A stretch of DNA of 64,000 nucleotides from positions 143,091-207,090 of the forward strand of contig CALXZG010000001.1 in NCBI GenBank assembly GCA_944393195.1. Direction: 5' to 3'. The notes under the pieces were generated by a model, which saw only the letters and a list, made by a program, of their open reading frames with translations, did no database searches and was not told the DNA's origin. Positions 20,424 through 60,326 of the stretch are shown here, piece after piece (position 1 is the stretch's first letter; each line of letters starts with the position of its first letter). Source of the stretch: an uncultured Alphaproteobacteria bacterium (GTDB lineage: Bacteria; Pseudomonadota; Alphaproteobacteria; CAAHEQ01; UBA3637). A program made the translations under genes and the position numbers.

Positions 20424-20500
20424 CGGAATGTAGCGCAGCCTGGTAGCGCACTTGTCTGGGGGGCAAGTGGCCGCGGGTTCAAATCCCGCCATTCCGACCA
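20424..20500 (+). tRNA. tRNA-Pro (anticodon GGG)
   Basis: Hand-folded cloverleaf: acceptor stem CGGAATG/CATTCCG, T-arm GGGTTCAAATCCC, anticodon stem CTTGT/GCAAG (one G-U pair) with loop CTGGGGG (anticodon GGG, G37), encoded CCA at the 3' end. Confidence 0.8.
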
Positions 20501-20536
20501 ATATCAAAAAGCGGAAGTTTATACTTTCGCTTTTTT
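20496..20536 (+). repeat. Left copy of a 41-bp direct repeat (att-like), starting in the last 5 nt of tRNA-Pro
   Basis: GACCAATATCAAAAAGCGGAAGTTTATACTTTCGCTTTTTT. Repeated at 24136-24177 with one substitution and one extra T. Contains a terminator-like hairpin. Confidence 0.8.
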
Positions 20537-20819: not shown

Positions 20820-20867
20820 AGTCAGTTATATAGCATATATTTGATAATAGAGAAGGAGCAGTTATTC

Positions 20868-23800
20868 GTGCACAATAGATATTCAAACGGTCATGAGAGT
20901 GGACGTGCCGCATTGGAAATGATTCTAGTCTTATGTATTATGGGGATTTTGAGTATAGCCATTGTTGTGGGTGCCCATTACGCTATCATTCGAGCGCAGG
21001 TTGTTGAAACAGAGAATCTGATTTCCAAGTCTGTTGCCGGTGTTCGGACAAGCCATTATTTGGAAAATCTATCTCATCAATATGAAGCAGAAAATGAGGA
21101 TTTATTTGCCTTGGCTGAAAAAATTGAAACATCCTTTTATATCAGCGATATTGCTTTATCCCAACCCGGTGATAAGGAATATGATTTGTATGGTGGAGAA
21201 AACTTTAAAGGGCCGGCCGGAACGGTGATTTCTGCTAATGTTTTAGTAAATGGATTAGGTCTTATTATCAACCTAAACCAAATATCAACAGAAATTTGCG
21301 AAGCCATATTAGAACATAAATTAGGCTATGAGGCGGCTTTTCGTTTAAATGATTTATATTCACAGGGCGGATATTTAAGTATCAGTGATAATAGCATCTT
21401 CCACGCACAAGACAGTGTGATTGGCTCAACCGGCGCTGAGGTGCGCACAAGATTGTGCGCTCCGGATATAAAAGATGCTTATGGATTAGAGAACGTTGCA
21501 CATATCGGATTATTATTCAGTGCTTCTCCTGATAGGAATATCTCATTTGACTGTGAAGGGGCTTGTTCTTCATGTACACAGTGTATTCTAGATATGTGTC
21601 TACCAATCAAGAAAGACATTTGCGGAGAGCTGGCCTATTATGACTACCAAAGCTGCTCTTGTCGATGCTATGCCAATACCAGTGGGGATCCTCACACAAA
21701 GTGTGAATGTCCATCCGGCACATTTTTTGACACAGATAAAAAGAAATGCGTCTTATGCCAAACGGATCAGGATTGTTATCAACAAAACCCCTATAAACCT
21801 TTTTGTGAAGAGGATGGCATGGCTTGTTGGGGATGTTCAGATTACGCCAAAACAGACGATAGCTATAAAAACTCGGTTTTTGTGTTGCCAAGCAACAGTC
21901 CTGGCACCCAAGAGCCTCAGAACTTTGATCCAAGCAGTACCTGCTTAACCTGTGCGGCGCAAGGTCTTCACGAAAAGTGGGTAGATAATAATTTGCTGTG
22001 TGTGGAGTGTAATACGGATGATGATTGTCACCACCAGGAAACTTTGCGTATCTGTGATCAAGAGACCAACACATGCGTCTGCCCCGGCATGATGACATGG
22101 AACGATAAGTCCGGACGATGTGAGTGTATTGTAGATGTATCGGGAGATCATTTTGACAACCAAAACTGTGTCTGTGCGACAGGGTATGAAACCGTGATAA
22201 CAACCAATGCGGAGAATCAAGAGGACATATCCTGTTTCTCACCTTGTGTTGGACTGGGAATGACAGGCGTTCGTGAAAATGGCGTGTGTTTATGTGATAC
22301 CAGTAAGGGATATTTAAGATTGGCCATCTCGACCGACGATAATGGACAACCCATTACTCCCTATTGTCCCTGTGACACTGATCAGGGATATTTTCAAGAT
22401 GCCAATGGTGGGTGTGTCAAATGTCATCCTATATCCGATGAACAAAAGAAGGCCTTTGAAGATGGTTCTATTGATCCCCATACATATGTGGATACATGGA
22501 ACTGTGGCCGTTCGTATCTAGGGTTTGTACGCTGGTTTAATCCGGACTATACACAAGATGCGCGTCTGACTAACGGTGAAAAATATTGTCCTGACGGATG
22601 GGTATTGAAACGAGAGCATGATGTCACCAAAGAGCTCAAAATCGATGATAGAACCTATCAGGTCATTGATGTAGACAAGTCCAGCGGTTTATTTAAATGT
22701 ACCCCATGTCGGGATCTAACGGATCCCAATGGAAAACCTGCCATAGCGGAGGGAACGGGTTGGGGATATTGTGGATGCGGTCGCTATACGATCCCAATAT
22801 ACTATACAGCTGAGAATGCTCTGAACAATAAGCGGGGCTCAGGAGGCACTTGTCAAAGTTCTTGCTATGACACCTATAAAGCATGGTATCAAAACGAAAC
22901 GAGTGAGGATGCCACTGCCAGAAAGGGATATCATCTAGATTCTTTTGATGCAAGAAATTCCTCTTTTGGAACAGGAAGTGAGGCCGAAGGATGTGGATGG
23001 AATTGGAACTATAATTTTATCAGCGATCAACCGGGACAACGATTTGAAGATATCGCTATTCCCCAGGGAAAAGATGAGTGGAAAAAGGTCAACATTGCTC
23101 GCACAGATTGTGGGATAAACGGAGAACGCCCTCTTTGGGATAAAAACGGGCGTAGAAACTTTTCTTATGAGCGCTGGTATAGAAACACTCCTCAGAAGTG
23201 TCATCCGGGCAACCATTACTATTATCAAACGATGAGCGGTGATTGTTCCTATGAAAAAGGATGCACCACGACGTATCTCTCTTTGGCGGCTTGCGGCGCT
23301 AATGTTCAGATAAAAGATTGCACCTGCGAAGGGAGTTATGTTGCTCGGGGGGCGAATAAGGACATTTGCTGTCATAAAAATCAATACCTGAAGGGTAGCC
23401 AATGTGTTTATTGTCCGACGGGACAAATTCCCAATATGGATGGCACGGCTTGTATCGTATGTAAAGCCGGAGAATATGTCGAAAATGGAGCATGCTTGGC
23501 ATGTCCAGCCGGTTCCGAGCCTAATACCGACAAAACCGGTTGCATTGCTTGTCGAGAAGGATATGCGGTCCAAAACGGAACATGTCAAAAATGCCCCAGC
23601 GGATATATTCCCAATACAAATAAAACAGCATGTGAAGCCTGTAAAAACGGCATGATTGTCATATCCGAGTATCAGAATGGTCTATTAACCAAGACCTATT
23701 GTGATTGCCCCAAGACTCAGTTCGAGGTTAAAGACAACGTCACGGGAGAGACCTACTGTCGAACCTCAGAGGAGGATAAATGCTATAATGGTGTCTGCTG

Positions 23801-23966
23801 CTCATCAGGTAAATACCCGGTCTGTACAGATGAACATTGTACCAATACCAGATGTTGTCCGGATGGTTATACTCTGTTTGGAAGTGACACCTGCATTATC
23901 TGTCCGGAGGGAACAAAAACAATAGAGTCAACACCTAATTCAGGCCGATATGCTTGTGGGGCTTAA
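20868..23966 (+). CDS. Large pilin-like (class III signal peptide) Cys-rich secreted/surface protein with eukaryote-like furin-like CxxC repeat array
   Basis: GTG 20868 lies 9 nt after a strong AGAAGGAG RBS; the ORF-track TTG at 20841 overlaps the RBS. N-terminus VHNRYSNGHESG|RAALEMILVLCIMGILSIAIV: Gly, Glu at +5, Gly-Ile-Leu at +14 to +16 match the type IV pilin helix. The remaining ~980 aa carry more than 100 Cys. The C-terminal third holds 6 consecutive ~19-aa units CxxCPxGxxPNxxxTxC (about 23363-23660), which is furin-like/GFR Cys-rich character. Confidence 0.75.
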   Translation: MHNRYSNGHESGRAALEMILVLCIMGILSIAIVVGAHYAIIRAQVVETENLISKSVAGVRTSHYLENLSHQYEAENEDLFALAEKIETSFYISDIALSQPGDKEYDLYGGENFKGPAGTVISANVLVNGLGLIINLNQISTEICEAILEHKLGYEAAFRLNDLYSQGGYLSISDNSIFHAQDSVIGSTGAEVRTRLCAPDIKDAYGLENVAHIGLLFSASPDRNISFDCEGACSSCTQCILDMCLPIKKDICGELAYYDYQSCSCRCYANTSGDPHTKCECPSGTFFDTDKKKCVLCQTDQDCYQQNPYKPFCEEDGMACWGCSDYAKTDDSYKNSVFVLPSNSPGTQEPQNFDPSSTCLTCAAQGLHEKWVDNNLLCVECNTDDDCHHQETLRICDQETNTCVCPGMMTWNDKSGRCECIVDVSGDHFDNQNCVCATGYETVITTNAENQEDISCFSPCVGLGMTGVRENGVCLCDTSKGYLRLAISTDDNGQPITPYCPCDTDQGYFQDANGGCVKCHPISDEQKKAFEDGSIDPHTYVDTWNCGRSYLGFVRWFNPDYTQDARLTNGEKYCPDGWVLKREHDVTKELKIDDRTYQVIDVDKSSGLFKCTPCRDLTDPNGKPAIAEGTGWGYCGCGRYTIPIYYTAENALNNKRGSGGTCQSSCYDTYKAWYQNETSEDATARKGYHLDSFDARNSSFGTGSEAEGCGWNWNYNFISDQPGQRFEDIAIPQGKDEWKKVNIARTDCGINGERPLWDKNGRRNFSYERWYRNTPQKCHPGNHYYYQTMSGDCSYEKGCTTTYLSLAACGANVQIKDCTCEGSYVARGANKDICCHKNQYLKGSQCVYCPTGQIPNMDGTACIVCKAGEYVENGACLACPAGSEPNTDKTGCIACREGYAVQNGTCQKCPSGYIPNTNKTACEACKNGMIVISEYQNGLLTKTYCDCPKTQFEVKDNVTGETYCRTSEEDKCYNGVCCSSGKYPVCTDEHCTNTRCCPDGYTLFGSDTCIICPEGTKTIESTPNSGRYACGA

Positions 23967-23991: not shown

Positions 23992-24018
23992 GAGCGGGGT
24001 CTTCCCGCTCTGTTTCGT
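23992..24018 (+). terminator. Putative terminator of the islet gene
   Basis: GAGCGGG-gtctt-CCCGCTC hairpin followed by TGTTTCGT. Confidence 0.4.
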
Positions 24019-24135: not shown

Positions 24136-24177
24136 GACCAATATAAAAAAGCGGAAGTTTATACTTTCGCTTTTTTT
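24136..24177 (+). repeat. Right copy of the 41/42-bp direct repeat
   Basis: GACCAATATAAAAAAGCGGAAGTTTATACTTTCGCTTTTTTT. Confidence 0.8.
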
Positions 24178-33755: not shown

Positions 33756-34679
33756 ATGAAAAAGATTTTGGTGATTAAATTAGGCGCTTTGGGCGATTTT
33801 GTCTTAATGACCGGCTTGATGCAATCTATCCGTCGGGCTTATCCGGATGCGCATATTACCTTGATGACAAACCAAAGCTTTATCAAACTGGCTCGCCAAA
33901 GCGGTTATTTCGATGATTTCATTGTGGATAACCGAACACATAAGGTTAAAGATTACATCCGTATCATTCGACAACTGGCCTCAAACCGTTTTGACCTGAT
34001 TTTCGATCTTCAAATTTCTAAAAGAACACGTCGCCTGTATTATTGGGCAACTCGGATTTTTGCCAAAAGAAACTTTACTTGGGCAAAACTGACATCCGGC
34101 GGTTTTTGTTTCATTAATATCGTCAAAAAATATCCGCTGACATGGGGGCGAACTACACAACAAACACAAAAATGGACAAGCTTTCCGCCTACGCTCACTT
34201 TTTGCCGGGGCGATAATACCCATTTTGATTTATTACCGGATCGGTATGTTTTGCTGATTCCCGGTTGTTCCGCCAATCATCCGTATAAAAGATGGCCGGC
34301 AACCTCCTATGCCGAACTGGCACACAAATTAGCCGAAAAAAATATCCCGACGGTTGTTCTGGGTACCTCAACCGAGCGGGAAGAAATCAACGTTATTTGT
34401 TCACGGGAACCGATGGCGGTTGATTTTTGTAATAAATCCTCCTTAATGGATATTCCTAATTTGGCACAAAAAGCCTTGGCTGTTGTGGGGAACGATACCG
34501 GTCCGACACATATGGCCTCCTTGGTTGACAAACCGGTTGTCGCCCTGTTTTGTGAAAAAACGCAAAGGTCCGCTCTTTCCCTGCCGAATGTCCATAATAT
34601 TATCAAACAGAATATAGCCGATATTACCCCGGACGAAGTCTTGGTACAACTGCAAAAAATGATGCCTTTGGAAGGGTAA
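33756..34679 (+). CDS. ADP-heptose:LPS heptosyltransferase (GT9)
   Basis: GT9 family architecture (MKKILVIKLGALGD...). Last gene of the heptose cluster. Confidence 0.8.
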   Translation: MKKILVIKLGALGDFVLMTGLMQSIRRAYPDAHITLMTNQSFIKLARQSGYFDDFIVDNRTHKVKDYIRIIRQLASNRFDLIFDLQISKRTRRLYYWATRIFAKRNFTWAKLTSGGFCFINIVKKYPLTWGRTTQQTQKWTSFPPTLTFCRGDNTHFDLLPDRYVLLIPGCSANHPYKRWPATSYAELAHKLAEKNIPTVVLGTSTEREEINVICSREPMAVDFCNKSSLMDIPNLAQKALAVVGNDTGPTHMASLVDKPVVALFCEKTQRSALSLPNVHNIIKQNIADITPDEVLVQLQKMMPLEG

Positions 34680-34767
34680 ATCCCCCAAAAAAAAGAGTGC
34701 TGACTTGCGCGGGCGGTTTTATCTGCCTATGTTTTTCCTGTACTGATTAAAAAAGGGGGAAATAATC

Positions 34768-35064
34768 ATGCCGGAATTTGCAAATATTAACAGTGTTTAT
34801 ACACCGGATAAAAAATTAACAACCATTGAAATGTTGCGTGCCATTAAGTTTGCAATCGCTTCGGAATACGAAGCAATTCAACTCTACCAACAAATCATGG
34901 AATCAACGGATAATAAAGACGTTAAAATCGTTCTGTCCGATGTTGCCAAGGAAGAAAAACACCATGTCGGTGAATTGCGAAAACTACTTGAAATCCTGTC
35001 ACCGGAAGATGAAAAAGAATATCAACACGGTGATCGGGAAACGGTGGAAAATCTGGGACAATAA
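34768..35064 (+). CDS. Small ferritin-like/rubrerythrin-family di-iron protein
   Basis: 98 aa with paired E...ExxH-like motifs (SEYEAIQLY, KEEKHHVGEL). Strong terminator follows. Confidence 0.45.
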   Translation: MPEFANINSVYTPDKKLTTIEMLRAIKFAIASEYEAIQLYQQIMESTDNKDVKIVLSDVAKEEKHHVGELRKLLEILSPEDEKEYQHGDRETVENLGQ

Positions 35065-35085
35065 AAGCGGATTTTTCCGCTTTTA
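35063..35085. terminator. Rho-independent terminator (bidirectional)
   Basis: AAAAGCGGATTTTTCCGCTTTT. Confidence 0.7.
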
Positions 35086-35988
35086 TTCATTTTCACCCAT
35101 ATTTATCCGGTTCTTTGCTCGTTCTGTTTGATACCGATAGGCAACGGCCCGTAAAACCCGTATAAAATCGGGATCGGTTAAAAAAGTTCCGTCATCCGGC
35201 GGATGAATCCGCGGAGCTTTCGCCAAAAAGGCGGCTCGTTCTTCGGGTGGTAAAGAGGTTGCCTGAGTTCTGGCTTCAAATATAGCCTGTCCGTGCCCGA
35301 CAACATCGTCGTCATAGGCCACCTGTTCGGGAAGCCATCTCCGTCGAAAAGCATAAGCGGACGATTCCAAATCCCGCCCTTCGGTCGGATATCCGATAAT
35401 ATCCAATAACTCTTTAACGGTATATTCGGCCATTTTGTCGGCATCGTCCAACCGATACCATAATCCGATACCGGCTTCGGCCAACCGTTGCCAAGGAAAA
35501 GCCTTTCCGGGATCGGCTTTGGCATCCGGAACAATATCGCTGTGTCCGACAATGTTTTCGGGCGGGATATGATACCGCGCCATTATATCCTGAACCAATG
35601 GGATAAGGGCTGCGATCTGTTCTTCTGAAAAAGGCGTTTGTCCGAAATCCGGATGCTGTAACTCTATCCCGACAGAGGCTTTGTTCAATCCGTTTAATCC
35701 GTGCCAATAGCTGACCCCCGCATGCCAGGCAACTTTATCCTCCGGTACCACAGGAATAATATGCCCCGCCGTGTCAATAATATAATGAACACTGATACGA
35801 CTTCTATCCAAAGTCCGCAACATTTCTGCCACGGATAGGGTAAAATGGTGAATCACAATATGTGTCACCGGTTGCATGCGTGTTTCACTGTGGGGCAGGG
35901 GCAGGCTCGGTATAAAATCGTCCCTTTGTACCGGTTGACTGACCAGGCATATCAAAATCATAAGAAACATAAAATCGGCTTTTGTCAT
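35083..35988 (-). CDS. N-acetylmuramoyl-L-alanine amidase (Amidase_2, AmpD/AmiD-like) with signal peptide
   Basis: Start set to the ATG complement of 35986-35988 after a GGAGG RBS, giving MTKADFMFLMILICLVSQPV. Amidase_2 zinc ligands (H...H...D) recognisable. Confidence 0.75.
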   Translation of the reverse strand: MTKADFMFLMILICLVSQPVQRDDFIPSLPLPHSETRMQPVTHIVIHHFTLSVAEMLRTLDRSRISVHYIIDTAGHIIPVVPEDKVAWHAGVSYWHGLNGLNKASVGIELQHPDFGQTPFSEEQIAALIPLVQDIMARYHIPPENIVGHSDIVPDAKADPGKAFPWQRLAEAGIGLWYRLDDADKMAEYTVKELLDIIGYPTEGRDLESSAYAFRRRWLPEQVAYDDDVVGHGQAIFEARTQATSLPPEERAAFLAKAPRIHPPDDGTFLTDPDFIRVLRAVAYRYQTERAKNRINMGENE

Positions 35989-36000
35989 AATGCCTCCGTT

Positions 36001-36032
36001 AAAAAGCCCCGTCTGAAACGGGGCCATTTTTA
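36001..36032 (-). terminator. hisS terminator hairpin
   Basis: GCCCCGTCTGAAACGGGGC with a T-run on the minus strand. Confidence 0.6.
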
Positions 36033-37340
36033 TGCTTGCAATATAGCGATTAAATTTTCCTTAAACTCGGAAACCGGTACAACTTTTTGGACACCCGTTT
36101 CCATGTTTTTGATCAGGACTTGCCCCATCGCCGCCTCCTGCTCACCGATGTAGGCCGCCGCTCGCGCCTGACGTTTGTTGGCTCTTCCCATAAATTTACC
36201 GGTTTGCGCCGCCTTGAAATCACAATCGGCCGATAAACCGCTATCCGTCAAAGCTGCCGACATTTTAAGGATATCCGGCAAAGCCGCGGCCCCGTATCCG
36301 CCGATTAACACATCCACCGCCGGTATAACCCGTGTGTCCGGATATTTGGCTTTGTATAACTCCTCAATAACAACATCGCCGAACCCAAGGCCACACGCCT
36401 CTGTTGCCCGTCCGGTCAATTTTTCAAACAAATGATCATACCGGCCACCGCCGAAAATAGCCCGAAATTTCCGGTTGGTGTCAAATGCTTCAAAGACTAT
36501 CCCGGTGTAATACGCCAACCCGCGCACAATCGCCGGATCGATCATGATATAGTCACGAATCCCCAAAGCCTCACAGGCCGCCAAAAAAGCCTTCATATCG
36601 GCCATACCCGGTGCGTCTGCCAATCCGAAAGCCTCAATTTCCGGCAAACTACGTGCATTCATAAAGGCCGTAATTGCTTGAATCTGATTGTCAAGAACCC
36701 CGATTTCACGCAACATATCGGCAAAAACTTCGGGTGCCACTTTGTCCTTTTTATCCATAACCCCCATTACGGCAACGATATTCTCTTCCGTTATCCCGAT
36801 AGAAATTAAAAAGTCGCTGACCAATTGGCGGTTATTGACATGGATTTGAAAATCAGCCGCCGAAAATCCGATTTTCTGTAAAGCCGCTACCGCTGTTTTA
36901 AGCAGGTACGCCTCGGCTACACACTTTTCTTCCCCGATAATATCAATATTCCATTGAAAATGTTCCCGCTTCCGTCCCAAAGAAGCCCGTTCGTATCGGA
37001 AACATTGACCGATTGCATACACTTTTCCTTGGGCCGTAAAGGCATCACGGTTTCCCGCTACAATCCGAACCATGGAAGGCGTTAACTCCGGCCGTAACGC
37101 GATTTTCCGCCCCGATTTATCCTCAAAATTGTAAATTTGATCGGAAATTTCCTCTCCCGCTTTTCTTTCCAATAAAGATAACGGTTCGACAATCGGCGTT
37201 TCATATCGCACAAAGCCATGCTCTTCGGCCGCACTTGTCCACGCCGTCATTAACTTTTGCCGAAAAATCCAATCTTTCGGAAGAAAATCACGCATGCCGC
37301 GTAACGGAAGCTTGTCAATCGACTCTGTTTTTTCTGCCAT
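36030..37340 (-). CDS. hisS: Histidine--tRNA ligase
   Basis: Class II aaRS motifs and C-terminal anticodon-binding domain. Start at ATG (MAEKTESIDKLPLRGMRDF) with a GAGGA RBS. Confidence 0.9.
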   Translation of the reverse strand: MAEKTESIDKLPLRGMRDFLPKDWIFRQKLMTAWTSAAEEHGFVRYETPIVEPLSLLERKAGEEISDQIYNFEDKSGRKIALRPELTPSMVRIVAGNRDAFTAQGKVYAIGQCFRYERASLGRKREHFQWNIDIIGEEKCVAEAYLLKTAVAALQKIGFSAADFQIHVNNRQLVSDFLISIGITEENIVAVMGVMDKKDKVAPEVFADMLREIGVLDNQIQAITAFMNARSLPEIEAFGLADAPGMADMKAFLAACEALGIRDYIMIDPAIVRGLAYYTGIVFEAFDTNRKFRAIFGGGRYDHLFEKLTGRATEACGLGFGDVVIEELYKAKYPDTRVIPAVDVLIGGYGAAALPDILKMSAALTDSGLSADCDFKAAQTGKFMGRANKRQARAAAYIGEQEAAMGQVLIKNMETGVQKVVPVSEFKENLIAILQA

Positions 37341-37585
37341 ATTTTTATTCCTCATTTATATCGGTTGTTTTTTTGCTACTGTATGTGAAAAGCGACCGAA
37401 AGTCAAGGATTTTTCTGTATTTCTGTTCCGCCTGTTTTGTTTTTCCGGTTTTTCTGCAAATTTTGCTTGCTTTTTCCCATAAAAAAGTGTATAAATACCC
37501 CGCGCGTCATGGGGATGCGCGACAAGAGTTTGGTTCACCCCTGGAGGACATCTCTTGTAGTTTTTTAATTTAAAAGGATAAAATT

Positions 37586-38215
37586 ATGAAATCGACAAAG
37601 TTAAACGCAACAAAACGTGTGAAAGCTGGTAAGGGGGCCTCTCGGGCAAATCGTCGGGCCGGTCTGATTCCTGCTGTTATTTACGGAGATAAAAAAGAAC
37701 CGGTAATGATTGCCTTGGAAGAAAAGGTTTTGGTTGCCGAAATGAATAAAAAAGGTCTGTGGACCCGTCAATACGAAATCGTTGCCGACGGTGAAAGCCA
37801 CCACGTCTTGTGCCAAGATATCCAAAAACACCCGGTTTCCAACCGGCCGATTCATGCGGATTTCTTGCGCATTTCTAAAAATTCTCACTTAACATTGGAT
37901 ATTCCGTTGACATTTGCGAACGGAGAAGTCGCGCCGGGTATTAAGAAGGGCGGTATTTTGAATATCGTTCACCGGACGATTGAAGTCAAATGTACACCGG
38001 ATAATATCCCGGAAACATTTGTCATCGATTTGGCTCAGGCCGAAATCGGCGATTCTTTCTGGGCATTTGCCATCACATTGCCGAAGGGCGTTTCTTTGAC
38101 GGCCGAAGAAGACTTTACGGTTGCGACCATCGTCACACCGACACAAACCGAAGAAGCTCCGGCCGTGGAAGCTGCTGCTCCGGCGGCTGATGCTGCGGCT
38201 GAAAAGAAGGAATAA
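37586..38215 (+). CDS. rplY: 50S ribosomal protein L25 (Ctc form)
   Basis: L25 N-domain plus C-terminal extension, 209 aa. Confidence 0.9.
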   Translation: MKSTKLNATKRVKAGKGASRANRRAGLIPAVIYGDKKEPVMIALEEKVLVAEMNKKGLWTRQYEIVADGESHHVLCQDIQKHPVSNRPIHADFLRISKNSHLTLDIPLTFANGEVAPGIKKGGILNIVHRTIEVKCTPDNIPETFVIDLAQAEIGDSFWAFAITLPKGVSLTAEEDFTVATIVTPTQTEEAPAVEAAAPAADAAAEKKE

Positions 38216-38218
38216 CCC

Positions 38219-38776
38219 ATGTTTTTATTGGTGGGGCTCGGTAATCCCGGTTCGGAATACGCCGATACCCGCCATAACGTTGGATTTATGGCGGTGGACG
38301 AAATTGTCCGCCGCTATTCCTTAAATCATTTTAAAGATAAATTTAAAGGGCAAATCACAACGGGAACGATTGGTGATGAAAAAACGGCTCTTTTAAAACC
38401 TGCCACATATATGAACCTGTCGGGTGAATCGGTTTTGTCCGCCTGTTCGTTTTATAAAATTAAACCGGAAAATATTATTGTTTTCCATGATGATATGGAT
38501 CTTCCCGTCGGTAAAGTCAAAGTGAAAACCGGTGGTAGCCCCGGCGGTCATAACGGAATTAAAAGTATTGACACCCATATCGGGGTAAACTACATGCGTG
38601 TTCGCGTCGGTGTCGGCCGCCCCACGCATAAAGAGGATGTCGTGAATTGGGTTTTAGCTCCTTTTGCTTCCGATGATGCCCTTAAAATACAGGATACCTT
38701 GGCTAAAATAGCCGAAAATCTGCCACTTCTTCTGATCGGCCAAGATCAAACTTTTATGAACAAAATAATCCGTTAA
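38219..38776 (+). CDS. pth: Peptidyl-tRNA hydrolase
   Basis: LVGLGNPG...RHNVGF. Confidence 0.95.
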   Translation: MFLLVGLGNPGSEYADTRHNVGFMAVDEIVRRYSLNHFKDKFKGQITTGTIGDEKTALLKPATYMNLSGESVLSACSFYKIKPENIIVFHDDMDLPVGKVKVKTGGSPGGHNGIKSIDTHIGVNYMRVRVGVGRPTHKEDVVNWVLAPFASDDALKIQDTLAKIAENLPLLLIGQDQTFMNKIIR

Positions 38777-38791
38777 ATCGCGAAAAACTTG

Positions 38792-38819
38792 TTGACAACC
38801 GCGACCGTTCCTTTATAAT
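38792..38819 (+). promoter_or_regulatory. Sigma-70 type promoter for ychF
   Basis: TTGACA, 16-nt spacer, TATAAT. Confidence 0.55.
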
Positions 38820-38851
38820 GAAACAAAAAAAGAGAGTAAAAGGAACTGAAT

Positions 38852-39955
38852 ATGGGATTTAACTGTGGTATCGTCGGCCTGCCAAACGTCGGAAAGTCAA
38901 CTTTATTTAATGCCTTGACCGCTACCGTTAACGCACAGGCTGCCAACTATCCTTTTTGTACGATTGAACCGAATGTCGGCCGCGTTGCCGTTCCGGACAA
39001 TCGATTGTTTGAATTACAAAAAATTGATAAGGCAGAAAAAATTATTCCGACGCAATTGGAATTTGTCGATATTGCCGGCCTTGTCAAAGGGGCTTCGCGC
39101 GGGGAAGGTTTGGGTAATCAGTTTTTGGCCAATATTCGCGAAGTAGATGCCATTATTCATGTTTTGCGTTGCTTTGATGATACCGATGTCGTCCATGTGG
39201 AAGGGAGTGTCGACCCGATCCGTGATGCGGAAACCGTGGAAACAGAACTGATGCTGGCTGATTTGGAAAGTCTTGAAAAGCGAATTGTTGGTGTTCAAAA
39301 GAAAGCGCAAGCCGGTGACAAAGAATCTAAAATGTTGCTGGACGTAATGCGTCCCGCGTTGGAAATGTTGCAAAGTGGTAAGCCTGCCCGTTTGGCTCGT
39401 CCGACGGACGCAGAAGCGCAAAAACAATTCGATAACATGTATCTGTTGACCGGCAAACCCGTTTTATATGTTTGCAACGTGGATGAAGCTTCCGCGGCGA
39501 CCGGTAATGCCTATTCCGAACAGGTGCGTGAAATGGCTGAACGTCAGGGGAATTCAAGTGTTGTAATTTCCGCGGCGATTGAGGCCGAAGTGGCTCAATT
39601 GACCGATACCGCGGAACAACAGGAATTCTTGTCGGCGCTTGGTTTGGCCGAAACGGGGCTCAGTCGGATTATTAAAGCGGGCTATGCGTTGTTGGGGTTG
39701 GAAACATTTTTTACCAGTGGTCCCAAAGAAGCCCACGCATGGACAATGCGTCGGGGATGTACGGCGCCCCAGGCGGCGGGCATTATTCATACCGATTTCG
39801 AAAAAGGTTTTATCCGGGCGGAAGTTGTGTCGTATGCGGATTATATTGCCTATCACGGTGAAGCCGGTGCGCGTGAAAACGGCAAATTGCGACAGGAAGG
39901 TAAAGCCTACATCATGCAAGATGGCGACGTTGTGCACTTTTTGTTTAATGTATAA
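38852..39955 (+). CDS. ychF: Ribosome-binding ATPase YchF
   Basis: [18 protein letters not shown] and the C-terminal TGS domain. Confidence 0.95.
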
Positions 39956-39970
39956 AGGGGAGGGGGAGAC

Positions 39971-40408
39971 ATGCCGATTGTTTCATGGCGAGATCAAATG
40001 AGCTTAAATTATCCGCCGTTGGATGATGAACATCAGGATTTTTTAAATACGGTTAATCAAGCCGTCGTGGCCGCGAATGCGGGGGATTTGCAAACAATGG
40101 ACGAAGTATTTGAAAAAAGCTATGACTATGTTCGTTATCATTTTGCGCATGAAGAGGATGTAATGGAACGTATCCGCTTCCCGGATATGGAAGCACATAT
40201 GAACGCCCATCAAACATTTATTCAAAATATTTCCGAGTTTCGTCAGAAATACGAAAATGCACCGAATCTGACGCAAAAAAAGAAGATAGCCGTTGATACC
40301 GCTAACTTCTTAAATTTGTGGTTTTTGGGTCATATCCTTAGTCGGGATAAACTCTTAAAGCCGTATCTTGTCCGCTTGCGCAATTTACCGCCGCGGATGA
40401 ATTATTAA
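39971..40408 (+). CDS. Hemerythrin-like metal-binding protein
   Basis: H...HFxxEE...H...H...D pattern of bacteriohemerythrins, 145 aa. Confidence 0.75.
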   Translation: MPIVSWRDQMSLNYPPLDDEHQDFLNTVNQAVVAANAGDLQTMDEVFEKSYDYVRYHFAHEEDVMERIRFPDMEAHMNAHQTFIQNISEFRQKYENAPNLTQKKKIAVDTANFLNLWFLGHILSRDKLLKPYLVRLRNLPPRMNY

Positions 40409-42207: not shown

Positions 42208-42276
42208 GTTGATAAGCCCCTTATTCTTATACTTTTGATAATCTGTGGTATTGCATGGCTTATAAAGCAGTCCGTT

Positions 42277-42398
42277 ATCCTCTATAATTTTACGTCATCC
42301 TTGCGAAAGCGGAGATCTTTTAACCATCCTACTCCCTCATCCTCTATAATTTTACGTCATTCCCGCGTAGGCGGGAATCTTTGGACGCATACACTCTT
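42277..42398 (+). repeat. Tandem ~62-bp repeat (2 units); each unit carries a TATAAT box and a hairpin
   Basis: Both units start ATCCTCTATAATTTTACGTCAT. Unit B then has the perfect palindrome ATTCCCGC-GTAG-GCGGGAAT (42359-42378); unit A has a degenerate copy (ATCCTTGCGAAAGCGGAGAT). Confidence 0.7.
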
Positions 42399-42516: not shown

Positions 42517-42843
42517 TTGACCCGAGAATCTTCCAACGCACACAACGAACGGGGTCGGAGTATGGTTGAAATGTTGGGCGTTCTGGCCGTAGCCGGTGTG
42601 TTATCGATCGGTGGCGTGGCCGGGTATCGGTATGCGATGGACAAGATGAATGCGAATGACATTATTAACGAAGTAAAAAAAAGAGCCGTGACGGCAAGTC
42701 AACAACGGATTTTGGGACAGAATATCAGTTTAGCAGAGTACGGGGATAACGGACGGATTAAAGGAATTCATACTGTCACAGCGACAAACGATTATGCGGG
42801 TGACAAAGGGTTCTTTGCATTAACGGTATCGGCGGTACCGTAA
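42517..42843 (+). CDS. Small pilin-like protein (prepilin-type N-terminus); possibly the N-terminal fragment of a disrupted pilin-EGF fusion gene
   Basis: Leader ...TRESSNAHNERG|RSMVEMLGVLAVAGVLSIGGV parallels the islet protein (NGHESG|RAALEM...): Gly, Arg at +1, Glu at +5, Gly at +14. Start uncertain: TTG 42511, TTG 42517 or ATG 42562, none with a good RBS. Ends at TAA 42841-42843, which is in frame with the next ORF. The ORF-track 42169 start is rejected because the upstream part is repeat/non-coding DNA. Confidence 0.5.
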   Translation: MTRESSNAHNERGRSMVEMLGVLAVAGVLSIGGVAGYRYAMDKMNANDIINEVKKRAVTASQQRILGQNISLAEYGDNGRIKGIHTVTATNDYAGDKGFFALTVSAVP

Positions 42844-42867
42844 CGGGTATGCGATGCAATTCTGAAA

Positions 42868-43611
42868 ATGGATTGGAATATGCCGGTTGAAACAGCCGTT
42901 GGGGAATTTATCGTAGATGATGACACGGTATGCGCCGAAGGCGATAATGAAATGTTGTTTGCTTTCCATAATACCTTGGACAACTCACTCGTCCCGGGGG
43001 AAGGGGGAGAAGAAACCCTGAGTCCAGATGAAGCAAAGTGTTCCGGAAATGGAACGTGGGATGGAACAGCTTGTGCCTGTGCCGATGGTTGGATCGGGGA
43101 TGATTGTTCAACATCGTGTGTGCTTAAAGGACGTGATGGCAATTGTTATTCTTGTGATAGCACAGAAATCGTTAGGATTGATGATAGCGCGGATTGCCGT
43201 GTTTGTGATGGTGTGACCGAAACAAAGCGATATATATCCTTTCAAAATGGAAAAACATGTGTTTTAGGAAATGATTGTCCCGATGGGTCAACACCGGACG
43301 ACTCGACGGGATATTGTGAATGCCCCAACGGACAATTTTTTACCTTGGGTTTTAGCAACACATGCGTGACATGCGAAGACGCTTTTGATGATGATCATAT
43401 TTCAGTTTTAGAGGACAAGGTAGACGAAATTTGTAGTATGTGTGGATTGGACGTAACGGATTATTATGCGCCGAACAAACAAGCAATTGACGGATCACTG
43501 ATTTGTGTCAACCTCGATGAAGCAAAGTGTTCCGGTCATGGAACGTGGAACGGATGTGGATGTGATTGTGACACCGGTTGGTGTGGGAGTGGTTGCTCAA
43601 CGGGGTATTAG
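42868..43611 (+). CDS. Cys-rich EGF-like domain protein with no signal peptide; likely the C-terminal portion of the upstream pilin-like gene (pseudogene or readthrough)
   Basis: Same reading frame as 42517-42843, separated only by TAA plus 24 nt. Two EGF-like signatures: CSGNGTWDGTACACADGWIGDDC and CSGHGTWNGCGCDCDTGWCGSGC. 38 Cys in 247 aa. No secretion signal of its own. Confidence 0.5.
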   Translation: MDWNMPVETAVGEFIVDDDTVCAEGDNEMLFAFHNTLDNSLVPGEGGEETLSPDEAKCSGNGTWDGTACACADGWIGDDCSTSCVLKGRDGNCYSCDSTEIVRIDDSADCRVCDGVTETKRYISFQNGKTCVLGNDCPDGSTPDDSTGYCECPNGQFFTLGFSNTCVTCEDAFDDDHISVLEDKVDEICSMCGLDVTDYYAPNKQAIDGSLICVNLDEAKCSGHGTWNGCGCDCDTGWCGSGCSTGY

Positions 43612-48109: not shown

Positions 48110-48805
48110 ATGACACATGTAACACTTTCGATTTTATACGGATTCCTCATCGGATTATTGCTGCCGGCCATTGCCGGTCGCTTCGGTAAGATTTTACCTG
48201 CCGACCCCGGTCTTGTTCTTCTTCGCCTGATCCATTTTCCCCGTTGCCCCCATACCGATAACCGATCCCGTCGTCACCGCTTTTTCCGGTTGTGGGGTAA
48301 ATTCACCGCCTTCACACTCCTTTGGGGTGTCCTGCTTGCCACTTTGTTTGGAATAATAGATCTCTTTATAACACCCGGCTTTATCCTGTGGGCCAAAGTA
48401 TTTACCACCATTATCTGCCTGTGCGTTATTATCGATCAAAAATATCTTCTGTTGCCCGACTTTTTTACAATCCCTCTGCTCCTGATCGGATGGGCGGCGG
48501 CCGTGTATATCGGTATCGTACCGGTTGAATATAGCTTAGCCGGTGCCGCTTTCGGGTATCTGGTTTCTACTCTTTCCGTTGTCTTAATGGGACTTTTTCG
48601 CCATCCGGAATTCGGGGGCGGGGACGTAAAAATGGTCACGGCTCTCGGGGCATGGTTCGGAATGCCGGGATTAAACTTTACCCTGATCTTGGCCTTTTTA
48701 CTGTTCGCAATGCCCGCCACACTCGCTTCTCGCAGGCGTGGTCCGTTCGGTCCCGCTTTGGGAGTGGCCGCCTTGATAACCCTGTTTATAATTTACGGCA
48801 AATAA
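48110..48805 (+). CDS. Prepilin peptidase (A24 family), single-domain form
   Basis: Polytopic membrane protein with both catalytic Asp motifs: IIDQKYLLLPDFF (compare ID..H.LLPD) and GGGDVKMVTALGAWFG (compare GMGDVKLLAALGAWLG). Only a single Cys (RCPH) where PilD has its tetracysteine loop. Confidence 0.7.
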   Translation: MTHVTLSILYGFLIGLLLPAIAGRFGKILPADPGLVLLRLIHFPRCPHTDNRSRRHRFFRLWGKFTAFTLLWGVLLATLFGIIDLFITPGFILWAKVFTTIICLCVIIDQKYLLLPDFFTIPLLLIGWAAAVYIGIVPVEYSLAGAAFGYLVSTLSVVLMGLFRHPEFGGGDVKMVTALGAWFGMPGLNFTLILAFLLFAMPATLASRRRGPFGPALGVAALITLFIIYGK

Positions 48806-57115: not shown

Positions 57116-58147
57116 ATGAAAAACATGACAGATAAGCTGACACGTCCCGCTTTGAAACAAGCCGATACAAAAGTTTCGGAAGCCGATATGATTTACTTTT
57201 CGTTGGGCATCGATACCGCAACGGATTTTGTGTTGCCGTCCGAAAGGGATGACTATCGTTCGGATAAACGCGCCGTTCAATTGGTGCACGACATTCGGGC
57301 CGGCAAAGATATGTCCGGTCGGGATTTCAGTGGTATTAACCTGAAAAACGCGGATATTTCCGGTGGCCGGTTCCAAGGTGCCTCCTTTAAAGGTGCCGTG
57401 TTTTATCAGACGCAAGCCGCCGATTGTGACTTTACCGATTGTGATTTTACCGAGGCTTATTTGGAAGACAGCGATTTTTCCCGTTCATGGTTTACCGGTG
57501 CCCGCTTTCAAAAAGCATACTTGCGCCATTTAACGTTGGATGAAGCACATTTGGATGACGAAGCCCGTAACCGGATAACCGCTATGGATAAGCTGATAGA
57601 TCTGATTGAATCCGGCGAAATCGATATTCACAACTTAACGGAATCTGATTTGCTTTTCCTTGATTTGCGTCGTCTGGACCTGTCTAAAGTCGATATCTCC
57701 GACATGGATTTATCCATGTTTAATTTGGAAGGGGTCAACCTTCGCGGTACCTACGTACCGCCCGGTATGCTGCTCAGTTTAAAGGAACTGAAACACAACT
57801 ACCTCCGTGTTCAAGCTTTGAATGAAAAAAAATTAAAGGCCGAAACGCTGAAAGTCCTCAAACAAAAACAGGACGAATTAATGGCGTATGCACAGTCTGC
57901 GGTTAATCATAAACCGGTCATTGATACCATGCCGATACACGATCAGAACCTGAAACGTCCCCCCATAAAGCAAGACGAATTTGACCGTTCCGTTCCGTCT
58001 CCCACACCGGTATCGTCCCCGAAAAAGACGGAAACGGACGAAACCAATCGTCCGCCCCGCACATCGCACAGGGAACCGACACAACCGATTTTGATGCCAC
58101 GTTTGCGCCGGTTGGCTAAAACCAAGAAAGTAAAGGCAAGAACCTGA
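57116..58147 (+). CDS. Pentapeptide-repeat protein with C-terminal basic/Pro-rich tail
   Basis: Multiple A(D/N)LxG-type pentapeptide tandem repeats (DMSGRDFSGINLKNADISGGRFQGASFKGAVF...). C-terminal ~80 aa is Lys/Arg/Pro rich. TATAAT overlaps the first ATG, so the start may be ATG 57125 (possibly leaderless). Confidence 0.75.
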   Translation: MKNMTDKLTRPALKQADTKVSEADMIYFSLGIDTATDFVLPSERDDYRSDKRAVQLVHDIRAGKDMSGRDFSGINLKNADISGGRFQGASFKGAVFYQTQAADCDFTDCDFTEAYLEDSDFSRSWFTGARFQKAYLRHLTLDEAHLDDEARNRITAMDKLIDLIESGEIDIHNLTESDLLFLDLRRLDLSKVDISDMDLSMFNLEGVNLRGTYVPPGMLLSLKELKHNYLRVQALNEKKLKAETLKVLKQKQDELMAYAQSAVNHKPVIDTMPIHDQNLKRPPIKQDEFDRSVPSPTPVSSPKKTETDETNRPPRTSHREPTQPILMPRLRRLAKTKKVKART

Positions 58148-58148
58148 T

Positions 58149-60326
58149 ATGATACACTTGAATCCCGCTTTTAAATCCCGTCGAAACGCTATTAAATGGT
58201 GGTCATGGCGCGCCCTGATCGGTGTTATGATTTTATGGGCGCTTTTGCTCTTTTTTCTGCCGTTTTGCTTGTGGTTACAGCCCAGCTATCAAGGTTCCCT
58301 CTGGTCGGTTGTTTCCGCCTTTTGGAAACAAACGGTGACACAAAATCTTTTCTTTCCGCTCAAAGCCTGGGGAGGGTGGTTGACTTCTTACCTGTTCCGG
58401 GAACCGATTCATACCCAATGGTCCTCTTTCTTTGCTTGGAAACTCCCCCTTATTCCAACTATGGCTTTTGTTTTGTATGAAATCTGGTTGTTTGTTCAGA
58501 ATCCGTTTACCATGGATGATCAAACATTCGGGAGCGGTCGTGAAGCCCGCCCTTCCGATGTGGAAAAAATGGGACTTTTTAAAGGGAAATACCTTTTTCT
58601 CGGCCTCTATCAGGGGCGCAAAATCAAATTGCCTGATACCCGATCCGTCTTTTGTATCGGCGCCCCCGGAAGCGGCAAAACCATGGGAACCGTCGTCCCC
58701 GCCATTCTGGAAATGAACGATGCCTGCCTGATTATTAACGATCCCAAAGGTGAGTTGGCTAAATTGACAAGTGGTCACCGTGCAACACTCGGCCCCGTGT
58801 TTATGATGAATTGGGGGGCGACGGATGAACCGGCCAAAGGTATTTGCTGGCCCTCATGGAATCCGATCGGCGGCGGTAACCTGCCACCGCTTCACGCCGG
58901 CCGAGAAGCCTATATCGACGGCTTGATTTCTTTCCTTATCCCCGACGGTCCGACCGGTACCGATCCCTATTGGGTCAAAACCGGACGCGGTTGCCTGACC
59001 GGCTTAACCGGCTATCTGTGCGGTAAAGTGGACCAAGCCAAAGCAAACGACTATTTTGTTGCCCGTTTAAGGGAAGGGGGCTTGGATGATGAAGATTACG
59101 CCGTTTTGCTCTCCTATTATCGGTCCATGCGTGATTTCAAAGAAGTCAAAGAAGCCATCCGTAACGCCGAAAATAAAACCATTACACGGGACAATTATCT
59201 ACCGATCGGAAAGTGGGATCCGATTCCCGAAAACTGGCGCGGTAATGAAGCTTGCTTTGCTATGCTGTTGGATATCATTACCTCCTCCCAAATTCGTATT
59301 AACGAAGAATTGGCAGAACGAAAACGTCAACGGGATTTAAGCGCTACAACAACAGATGCCTGGAAAATTATTTTGGAAGACATTGTTCTGGAAACCGCCT
59401 ACTACGGCTACGGCCGCCGAACTTTGTTGGAATTGAATCAAGTACTCAGTCTGCCGGATAAACAACGCGGATCCGTCATTTCAATGGCGCTGTCCGGCAT
59501 TAATCTCTTTAAGAATGCTGCCGTTCGTGTACGCACGTCCATGAATGACTTTGATTACGCCCATCTGCGCGGTATGAAAGATCCCGAAACGGGTACGTAT
59601 AAACCGATTACCATCTATTTGTCCGTCCCTTATGAAGACTTGAATTCATCCGTTTTGTTAAGTACCCTCTTTATCAATATGGCAACCGGCTACTTAATGG
59701 AATTCGGCCCGAACGAGGGTAAGGTGGGACCATATCCGATGGGCTTTATTTTGGACGAATTCCAACATATGCCTTCCTTACAAAGTATTTCCGACGGGAT
59801 TGTTTTCGGACGGGCAAAACAAAACATGTTCTTTGTCGTTGTGCAGGATTGGCACCAAATCTCTGCCAAATACGGTAAAGAAACCGCCCAAGTGGTCATG
59901 AGTTCCAGCGCCGTTAAAATCATTAAACGACAAAATAATCCGGAAACCCGTAATCCGCTCTTAAAAGGCATTACCCCCTTAACCAAAGTTGTCCATAGTT
60001 ACAGCGGTAAGTTTAATTCGTTAATCAGCTTTTTCCCAAAATCCGATATGAAAAAAGACCTTTTCCGTATTTGGGATCATGGTTATTCACATAAAATAAA
60101 GATCCAATCCGATTCCGTTATCGGCGGTTCCGGTATTCTCAGTATGGCAATCAATAAACAATTGGTCTTGTTTTCCGGCCACCTCAATACCCCTATCCGC
60201 GCCGAAACACCGCTTTGTTATAAAAATGCTACTTACAAAGCCTTAACCGCTCTTCCGCCGGCACCTAAAATGCCGCCGGAAATGGAACATGACGATACAA
60301 TCATCCAATCTATTGCGTCTATTTAG
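58149..60326 (+). CDS. Type IV secretion coupling protein (VirD4/TraG family)
   Basis: N-terminal TM helices, Walker A FCIGAPGSGKTMGTVVPAIL, Walker B ILDEFQHM, and GSGREARPSD resembling the TraG GSARWA motif. No relaxase or VirB genes in the window. Confidence 0.75.
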   Translation: MIHLNPAFKSRRNAIKWWSWRALIGVMILWALLLFFLPFCLWLQPSYQGSLWSVVSAFWKQTVTQNLFFPLKAWGGWLTSYLFREPIHTQWSSFFAWKLPLIPTMAFVLYEIWLFVQNPFTMDDQTFGSGREARPSDVEKMGLFKGKYLFLGLYQGRKIKLPDTRSVFCIGAPGSGKTMGTVVPAILEMNDACLIINDPKGELAKLTSGHRATLGPVFMMNWGATDEPAKGICWPSWNPIGGGNLPPLHAGREAYIDGLISFLIPDGPTGTDPYWVKTGRGCLTGLTGYLCGKVDQAKANDYFVARLREGGLDDEDYAVLLSYYRSMRDFKEVKEAIRNAENKTITRDNYLPIGKWDPIPENWRGNEACFAMLLDIITSSQIRINEELAERKRQRDLSATTTDAWKIILEDIVLETAYYGYGRRTLLELNQVLSLPDKQRGSVISMALSGINLFKNAAVRVRTSMNDFDYAHLRGMKDPETGTYKPITIYLSVPYEDLNSSVLLSTLFINMATGYLMEFGPNEGKVGPYPMGFILDEFQHMPSLQSISDGIVFGRAKQNMFFVVVQDWHQISAKYGKETAQVVMSSSAVKIIKRQNNPETRNPLLKGITPLTKVVHSYSGKFNSLISFFPKSDMKKDLFRIWDHGYSHKIKIQSDSVIGGSGILSMAINKQLVLFSGHLNTPIRAETPLCYKNATYKALTALPPAPKMPPEMEHDDTIIQSIASI

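Follow-up and report, generated by a model that had tools for sequence, protein, structure and literature searches.

The 64,000-nucleotide (nt) window analysed here (contig CALXZG010000001.1 of an uncultured Alphaproteobacteria bacterium, positions 143,091 to 207,090) carries, at 20868–23966 on the forward strand, a gene for a protein of 1032 amino acids (aa) that appears to be a modular pilin of the type IVb class, with an N-terminal pilin domain followed by a long cysteine-rich extension. All coordinates below are those of the window. The surrounding open reading frame (ORF) spans 20841–23966 (+), within which translation likely begins with the GTG at 20868: this codon follows the Shine–Dalgarno-like sequence GAGAAGGAG (20850–20858, +, read from the sequence) by 9 nt, and public gene calls also begin there (P0001, 1032 aa, 100 % identical). 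A terminator-like hairpin (23992–24010, +) is positioned 26 nt past the stop codon. Two strain variants, represented in several independent assemblies, differ at ten codons of this gene, five synonymously and five non-synonymously, with all five non-synonymous differences falling within aa 627–790. The resulting divergence of ~0.35 % of nt, against 0.8–1.0 % in the flanks, fits a functional gene under constraint.

The protein begins MHNRYSNGHESG↓RAALEMILVLCIMGILS (the arrow marks the predicted cleavage; in extended form, MHNRYSNGHESG↓RAALEMILVLCIMGILSIAIVV). This corresponds to a class III leader of 12 aa (20868–20903, +) with Gly at −1, Arg at +1, Glu at +5 and G14-I15-L16 further along the mature helix. 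Type IV pilin signals are defined by a leader that is short and hydrophilic, with Gly or Ala as its last residue, and by ~20–25 mostly hydrophobic residues, often including Glu5 (PMC10191384). Both elements are present in this N-terminus, the leader ending in Gly and the predicted cleavage site being followed by the hydrophobic stretch RAALEMILVLCIMGILSIAIVVGA, Glu5 included. An initial annotation of this DNA, made from the letters alone, had listed the 12-aa leader with its terminal Gly, the Glu at +5, the hydrophobic helix and the GIL at +14 to +16, and all of these can be read in the sequence.

Conservation across the family to which the protein belongs lends weight to this signal. An alignment of 29 diverse sequences of the family shows no variation at Gly −1, at Glu +5 or at two cysteines (C144 and C197, precursor numbering), while Glu −3 is found in 214 of 229 family proteins, the median leader is likewise 12 aa long and the signal motif is present in 145 of the 152 best profile matches. 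The arginine at +1, which the initial annotation had singled out as a departure from the canonical Phe or Met, is indeed there, but it is no oddity of this gene: 220 of the 229 relatives also carry Arg, making it the family consensus.

The profile searches were less accommodating. The match to PF07963 (N_methyl) that the initial annotation had in view did not materialise, even when the N-terminal 220 aa were searched alone at E≤10, and none of the NCBIfam pilin models matched the protein; a paralog at 42517 (described below) and the family member P0012 reached PF07963 only at a sub-threshold level (E ~0.055, 13.5 bits against a cut-off of 21.2). These misses would be expected if the N-terminus were an ordinary Sec signal or membrane anchor with a fortuitous likeness to pilins, leaving a Cys-rich protein in the periplasm or inner membrane. 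Such a reading would, however, have to accommodate the invariance of Gly −1 and Glu +5 and the near-universal motif, the presence of a charged Glu within the hydrophobic core, which is atypical of Sec signals, and a confidently modelled 50-residue helix with a pilin head. We regard it as largely refuted already and as extremely improbable.

That model was obtained with AlphaFold2 (AF2) for residues 1–235 on the basis of the 29-sequence alignment (predicted local distance difference test (pLDDT) score 82.8, predicted template modelling score 0.77). It consists of a long α1 helix (aa 11–61; 20898–21050, +; pLDDT 86–95 over aa 11–60), the N-terminal half of which is hydrophobic, leading into a five-stranded head, and thus has the ‘lollipop’ fold of a long α1 helix on a β-sheet head. 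The only Foldseek matches in the PDB with a probability of at least 0.8 were Salmonella Typhi PilS, Vibrio cholerae TcpA and CofA of enterotoxigenic Escherichia coli (ETEC), all three of which are type IVb pilins. When a profile of the family N-domain was compared with all PDB sequences, TcpA (E 1.8e-5) and CofA (E 6e-4) were recovered, with family residue +2 aligned on TcpA residue 2 and the first invariant family Cys on a TcpA Cys. In this register Arg +1 coincides with TcpA residue 1, so that the cleavage falls at the Gly–Arg junction; together with Glu −3 and the conserved Gly −1 and Glu +5, it underlies the predicted cut after Gly12.

Fold and sequence together therefore place the head nearest to those of TcpA, CofA and PilS. 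Residue +1 differs from Phe, as expected of type IVb pilins: it is Met in TcpA and CofA and Arg in the protein studied here. Its leader, and that of the family at the median, is shorter than the classical type IVb leader of about 15–30 aa. Leader length is not a discriminating character (PMC10191384). Because the structure model, the sequence profile and the conservation pattern are three independent lines of evidence, we assign the N-terminus to the pilins and, specifically, to the type IVb class: residues 13 to ~220 (mature aa 1–208; 20904–21527, +, including C144 and C197) make up a complete type IVb pilin domain and not just a signal. The proposal of a pilin-like N-terminus is thus borne out and extended to a full domain, and the long α1 helix that had been anticipated for it is what the structure prediction returned.

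From residue ~225 to residue 1032, the protein continues as a disulfide-rich extension of ~800 aa without significant relatives. Cysteine makes up 8.0 % of the protein (83 of 1032 residues), with 80 of the 83 lying past residue 200, and we counted 15 CxxC and 11 CxC motifs, in line with the initial description of a Cys-rich protein bearing both. Three parts can be distinguished. Cys-rich region I (aa 229–520; 21552–22427, +) contains CxxC, CxC and C..C.tD.DC-type motifs and no recognised domain (motif counts; AF2 pLDDT <50). A middle region (aa 530–830; 22455–23357, +) is rich in Trp, Tyr and Gly, poorer in Cys and holds all five non-synonymous strain differences. The third part (aa 846–938; 23403–23681, +; regular expression, Pfam and AF2) comprises six CxxC-initiated half-units that resemble TNFR/furin-like repeats. 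These had been taken for six tandem copies of CxxCPxGxxPNxDxTxC, but that pattern occurs only twice exactly and three times in relaxed form; the actual repeat is CxxCPxGxxPNxxxTxC (starting at aa 846, 876 and 906) alternating with a second unit, CxxCxxGxxVxNGxC (aa 862 and 892).

The assignment of these repeats to EGF/furin-type domains did not survive the profile searches. Scanning the whole protein, five segments of it and eight relatives against Pfam and NCBIfam returned nothing above threshold for either the N-domain or the tail, and residues 221–830 had no Pfam match in any segment, isolated segments scanned at E≤10 included. The best score was that of TNFR_ELAPOR1_6th, which reached 19 bits when the whole sequence was scanned and 28.3 bits (E 1.7e-6) with residues 800–1032 alone, against a cut-off of 33.2; NCD3G followed on the same residues (E 0.027, 14.8 bits against 38.9), and no EGF profile matched the protein in the Pfam scans. 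Searching the PDB with the full-length sequence (phmmer) gave no match at E≤1, while the repeat region displayed weak similarity to the cysteine-rich domain of mGluR1 (PDB). A word-index homology search with the full sequence retrieved only the protein itself and P0002, so that the tail is an orphan at the sequence level. Modelling aa 221–1032 without an alignment yielded a structure that we judged unusable (AF2 pLDDT 37.5), the only part at pLDDT 63–79 being the CxxC repeats at aa ~820–880, modelled as β-hairpins.

Whatever likeness the tail showed to Pfam and PDB entries came from the repeats at aa 846–938. These resemble the eukaryotic TNFR/furin-like/GCC2_GCC3 repeats (ELAPOR1, ephrin-receptor-like, mGluR) in their CxxC...C spacing and in the predicted β-hairpins. 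They differ in that all scores lie below the curated thresholds and that the likeness covers ~90 of ~800 tail residues. Judged from sequence, ‘eukaryote-like’ is a fair term for the style of the repeats rather than a statement of homology to the eukaryotic ones.

The N-domain belongs to a large family. When 1.84 billion representative proteins were searched with the family N-domain profile (HMMER), 5209 matched at E≤1e-3, of which 628 reached E≤1e-10, and a word-index search retrieved more than 4600 family proteins; the initial suggestion of a family rather than a one-off was thus correct on a far larger scale than had been guessed. The consensus reads (N/S)E(S/T)G↓RSMVEMLGVLAI(I/M)GVLS(I/V)GG(I/V)AGY, within which the signal (N/S)E(S/T)G↓RSMVEMLG is near-invariant. 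No Pfam or NCBIfam model matched the family in our scans, its database names are uninformative except for a single Joint Genome Institute (JGI) label (‘pseudopilin PulG’), and a literature search on the motif RSMVEMLG and on pili of RF32/CAG-239 bacteria produced nothing relevant. The protein under study falls into a divergent subfamily with a longer head (~220 aa), in the company of P0002 (700 aa), P0061 (1601 aa), P0097, P0095 and P0113.

Long tails are the rule in this family: in 181 of 229 proteins, the sequence past the pilin domain amounts to 100 aa or more, and the median Cys content of these extensions is 10 %. Among the relatives, we recognised tails with EGF-like CxGxGxW..C.C..GW.G..C motifs (sub-threshold) and tails with WW.A..C...ALC domains (lectin-like by eye only). 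In P0098 (356 aa), the pilin domain is followed by Pretoxin-HINT (PF07591, 28 bits, barely over the cut-off), which points to some members of the family delivering a toxin-like or self-cleaving cargo in place of an adhesive module. Several database members look truncated or frameshifted (P0030, P0174, P0007 and P0203); these could be pseudogenes, assembly errors of a multi-copy family or products of on/off switching.

A scan of one genome per species with a narrower family alignment found at least 562 loci, of which 80 were kept. Nearly all of the 80 are from metagenome-assembled genomes (MAGs) of uncultured Alphaproteobacteria, three being titled Pseudomonadota or Acidaminococcaceae. The gut MAGs come from humans (Hadza, Nepal, Brazil), goat, roe deer, buffalo, sheep and rabbit, in agreement with the eukaryote-associated bacterium that had been proposed. 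A single MAG has up to seven separate loci, and some loci hold three to four members. All 73 complete members in the kept loci are at least 200 aa long when mature (median 402). A 149-aa pilin with the signal NESG↓RSMVEML (L086, 6872–7321) is a candidate major subunit.

The window also contains a putative prepilin peptidase of 231 aa (48110–48805, +; Peptidase_A24, Pfam E 3.4e-17), in which D117 and, within the motif GGGDVK, D172 are the catalytic-type Asp residues. Neither a methylase (DiS_P_DiS) domain nor any other was detected in it at E≤0.1, and its N-terminal 96 aa include only one Cys, compared with four in this region of methylating prepilin peptidases (PMC10191384). Flanked by yqeY and rodZ, the gene is isolated and a long way from all pilus genes. 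The search for pilus or type II secretion system (T2SS) assembly genes that the initial annotation had proposed was thus rewarded in part: this peptidase was found in the window and a type IVb operon in related genomes, while neither the rest of the window nor the 10 kb past its left end held any further assembly gene.

In one related MAG (L041), a family member lies ~5 kb from genes for a T2SSF platform protein and a T2SSE ATPase. In two others (L088 and L089), the genes follow in the order 378-aa protein, TcpQ, Secretin, PAP_PilO, 360-aa coiled-coil protein, T2SSE and T2SSF, an order that we take to match pilN–R of plasmid R64. Approximately 6 kb beyond this operon, L25-Pth-YchF-hemerythrin are syntenic with 37586–40408 of the window (aa identities of 74, 68, 84 and 57 %, respectively). 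The corresponding place in the window (34679–37586) is taken by HisS, amidase and lipopolysaccharide-heptose genes where L088 and L089 (3810–13275) hold the pilus operon, indicating that the region has been rearranged. The lineage ATPase, taken from L041, shares 75–92 % identity with the 120 best of 5702 matches, all of them gut-metagenome proteins; compared with solved relatives, it scored 313 bits against the type IVb ATPase BfpD of enteropathogenic E. coli, 170 against GspE and ~150 against PilB/PilF. The platform protein has two T2SSF stretches, unlike the Tad arrangement. Based on the operon gene set and the BfpD-closest ATPase, the lineage has a type IVb pilus machine, and the window's own genome likely has one too.

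The same data bear on whether the protein should instead be counted among the pseudopilins, either of the T2SS (GspH/K-like) or of Tad/Flp systems (TadE/F-like). Database names lean that way, given the JGI label on one family member and the names ‘TadA’ or ‘GspE/PulE’ that NCBI attaches to the lineage ATPase. The comparisons themselves point elsewhere: the best fold and sequence matches are TcpA, CofA and PilS, with no Gsp or Tad protein among them; the ATPase is far closer to BfpD than to GspE; and its operon includes TcpQ, PAP_PilO and a two-domain platform protein. Furthermore, scans of the full protein and of the N-terminal parts of its paralogs found no Gsp, TadE or Flp family, and the Flp-type G↓xxxxEY motif is absent. 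We consider this classification very improbable.

Taken together, we put at roughly 60 % the probability that the protein is a modular type IVb-class pilin that is presented by a pilus with its Cys-rich module exposed, in which case it would, by analogy, most likely act as a pilus-tip adhesin. The α1-N hydrophobic segment would insert the precursor into the inner membrane, and the A24 peptidase would cut after Gly12, leaving Arg as residue 1 of an N-terminus that would probably remain unmethylated, since no methylase domain was detected in the peptidase. A type IVb machine such as that of the relatives (TcpQ, secretin, PilO, BfpD-like ATPase and platform) would then build the pilin domain into a filament, the body of which would consist of a small pilin with the same signal. 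On account of its large size, the protein would be a low-abundance and probably tip-located subunit, like CofB, TcpB and PilV. Its Cys-rich module, outside the cell, would bind a gut ligand, whether this belongs to the host, to mucus, to food or to another microbe, and the many paralogs, which share the pilin domain and vary in their tails, would provide a repertoire of alternative adhesive tips. For the family at large, we infer adhesin function and filament display.

Several observations weigh against this interpretation. We know of no characterised precedent for Arg at +1, and cleavage at Gly12↓Arg13 by the A24 peptidase is a prediction; neither PF07963 nor any NCBIfam pilin model recognises the protein. 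The tail yields a low-confidence AF2 model (pLDDT 37.5) and no domain above threshold. All of the 73 complete members reach the 200-aa mark noted above, and only one short pilin was seen. To our knowledge, the at least ten large modular pilins per genome are far above the number in any characterised type IVb pilus. The peptidase is the only pilus assembly gene found in the 64-kb window and the 10 kb past its left end, the assembly machine being documented only in related genomes, and a regular-expression scan of 1.2 Mb around the 80 family loci found one assembly ATPase, so that linkage gives little support.

The main alternative accounts for some of these points by assigning the pilin signal to surface display or export without a long pilus: after processing by the prepilin peptidase, the proteins would be kept at the envelope or driven out by way of the secretin by a short pseudopilus- or bindosome-like structure, and would not form the tip of an adhesive pilus. 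There is precedent in the Sulfolobus bindosome, in which sugar-binding proteins carry class III signals, and a likeness in secretion that depends on the T2SS or the toxin-coregulated pilus (TCP). Dozens of large paralogs per genome alongside scarce short pilins, family genes that are scattered and not beside the machine, and a peptidase with no detected methylase domain all speak for this arrangement. It sits less easily with the complete pilin head and invariant Cys pair of every aligned member, as filament incorporation requires, with a fold nearest to the polymerising major type IVb pilins, with at least one small pilin that shares the signal and with the full type IVb set, secretin included, of the relatives. 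We consider it unlikely, with the many large paralogs and few short pilins counting in its favour.

A modular pilin, i.e. a pilin module joined to a separate module that is not specific to type IV pili, describes the protein well: pilin residues 13 to ~220 precede ~800 aa of Cys-rich sequence with no above-threshold signature. The initial annotation held that fusions of pilins to large modules are rare, a view that the literature contradicts. More than 1,200 modular pilins have been listed (Raynaud et al. 2021, PMC8179133), and they are widespread and probably under-counted where the modules have no database signatures (PMC8179133). There are also precedents among type IVb pilins, namely CofB, a tip-located minor pilin (PMC8179133, PMC10191384), and TcpB, and two further papers concern TcpB and CofB (PMC5207764, PMC6048534). 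As modular pilins and type IVb minor pilins with large domains are both established, the protein is not categorically new. The Streptococcus sanguinis pilins PilB (von Willebrand factor A (vWA) domain) and PilC (lectin) likewise join a pilin module to a grafted functional module for presentation by a filament; in them, a type IVa module carries the vWA or lectin domain, whereas here the pilin module is of the type IVb class and the Cys-rich repeats have a eukaryotic flavour. Inclusion in the census of Raynaud et al. required a match to IPR012902 (PMC8179133), and PF07963, the N_methyl model for that motif, remains below threshold on the family described here. Signature-based pilin censuses would therefore probably miss this family of thousands, which also has no Pfam or NCBIfam model.

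Comparison with CofB of the ETEC CFA/III pilus and TcpB of the V. cholerae TCP reveals further differences. No likeness to the domains of CofB or TcpB could be detected in the tail of ~800 aa with 8–10 % Cys, Arg occupies position +1, and instead of the single minor pilin of this kind that characterised systems encode within the pilus operon there are many scattered paralogs per genome. PilV, known from R64 and S. Typhi, is a minor pilin adhesin with a variable C-terminal part that changes binding specificity. The operon of the relatives shares PAP_PilO, secretin, ATPase and platform with the R64/S. Typhi system, and S. Typhi PilS is a top fold match. In R64, the C-terminal segments are exchanged by DNA inversion in a shufflon, whereas here the variants are separate paralogous genes with unrelated Cys-rich tails, and no shufflon or Rci recombinase was seen.

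What is new is a large, coherent family of type IVb-class pilins without a significant Pfam or NCBIfam match, its non-canonical ExG↓R signal paired with a peptidase with no detected methylase domain, and its occurrence in many copies per genome, with Cys-rich tails, in uncultured gut Alphaproteobacteria. Type IV pili are among the principal means of host attachment in gut bacteria, and we found no description of the surface biology of the Alphaproteobacteria that carry this family in the literature. The conserved Arg +1 and Glu −3, together with such a peptidase, offer a testable case for how prepilin peptidases choose their substrates and whether N-methylation is dispensable, and the tail repertoire is a source of candidate ligand-binding modules for host–microbe studies.

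The gene is located immediately downstream of a tRNA-Pro (GGG) gene (20424–20500, +; ARAGORN). A repeat search identified a 41-nt direct repeat, the left copy of which (20496–20536, +) overlaps the last 5 nt of the tRNA gene, while the right copy (24136–24176, +) is identical at 40 of 41 positions. The two copies bracket a segment of 3.64 kb in which the pilin gene is the sole gene. Strain variants L003–L006 also have the repeats, and strain L004 carries a restriction-modification island (ResIII, N6_N4_Mtase, Bro-N) on the left side of the same repeat. The tRNA-Pro site looks like an att-like integration hotspot with tandem, cassette-like accretion, no integrase having been seen.

Such a setting raises the question of whether this 3.6-kb islet at tRNA-Pro harbours a decaying or silent cassette, possibly unexpressed. 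The flanking repeats would be in keeping with that, as would a nonsense codon in the 42517 paralog and the truncated or frameshifted family members (P0030, P0174 and P0007 included). By contrast, the gene itself has 1032 uninterrupted codons, a ribosome-binding site and a terminator, and it has been kept across strains of several samples at the low divergence given above. We therefore regard decay or silence as quite improbable.

More tentatively, the locus prompts a wider proposal, possible though doubtful at present: that these bacteria have a distinct type IVb branch, defined by the E-x-G↓R-S-M-V-E-M-L signal and a peptidase without a detected methylase domain, whose single machine serves at least ten interchangeable, cassette-like modular pilins per genome, each equipped with its own kind of disulfide-rich, eukaryote-flavoured module (EGF-like, TNFR/furin-like, lectin-like or even HINT). 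If true, the paralogs would do what the shufflon does for R64, namely vary what the pilus tip binds in the gut, and some cassettes, such as the one at tRNA-Pro, would move between strains.

A six-frame regular-expression search for the signal found exactly three sites in the window, against a mean of 0.08 over 100 shuffled sequences. Besides the gene at 20868, these are the two paralogs in which the initial annotation had recognised the same N-terminal architecture, at 42517 (NERG↓RSMVEM) and at 483–1 on the reverse strand (NERG↓AIMVEV). The former (42517–43611, +) is interrupted by an in-frame TAA at 42841–42843, which splits it into a 108-aa pilin-domain fragment and a Cys-rich ORF of 247 aa in the same frame. 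Its orthologs P0005, P0006 and P0007 have Gln (CAA) at this site, reading AVPQRVCDEIL. As for the truncated database members, the interruption could mark a pseudogene, an assembly error in a multi-copy family or on/off switching. An alternative genetic code was considered for this stop and rejected, as the codon is TAA and the remaining genes of the window are normal under table 11. The tail of this paralog (42868–43611) gave a sub-threshold match to EGF_Teneurin (E 6.8e-4, 20.1 bits against 24.3).

Upstream of the 42517 paralog, at 42270–42385, there are two tandem elements resembling repetitive extragenic palindromes (REP-like; …CTCTATAATTTTACGTCATYCC…GCGGGAATC hairpin). Translations of REP-like elements (IPAFAGMT, KIPDQVGDDG) occur as spurious N-terminal extensions in many family entries, e.g. 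P0153 and P0174.

The third paralog (1–483, −) is cut by the window edge, leaving its N-terminal 161 aa (MMTKKNERG↓AIMVEV); P0020 is an ortholog, and full-length orthologs measure 726–732 aa. Directly upstream of it, at 552–1871 (−), is the gene for a 439-aa protein with a hydrophobic N-terminal segment after KKGG; the ORF measures 455 aa, and public gene calling takes a Met further inside it as the start. This protein had no match in Pfam, NCBIfam or the PDB. The pair is kept in three other assemblies, where the paralog measures 726, 728 and 732 aa, and the 439-aa protein may be a partner or accessory of the paralog.

Finally, at 57116–60326, a pentapeptide-repeat protein is followed by a VirD4/TraG-type coupling protein of a type IV secretion system (T4SS-DNA_transf, E 1.4e-38), and a TrbC-like gene adjoins the pilus operon in L088 and L089, indicating that type IV secretion or conjugation components are also carried.

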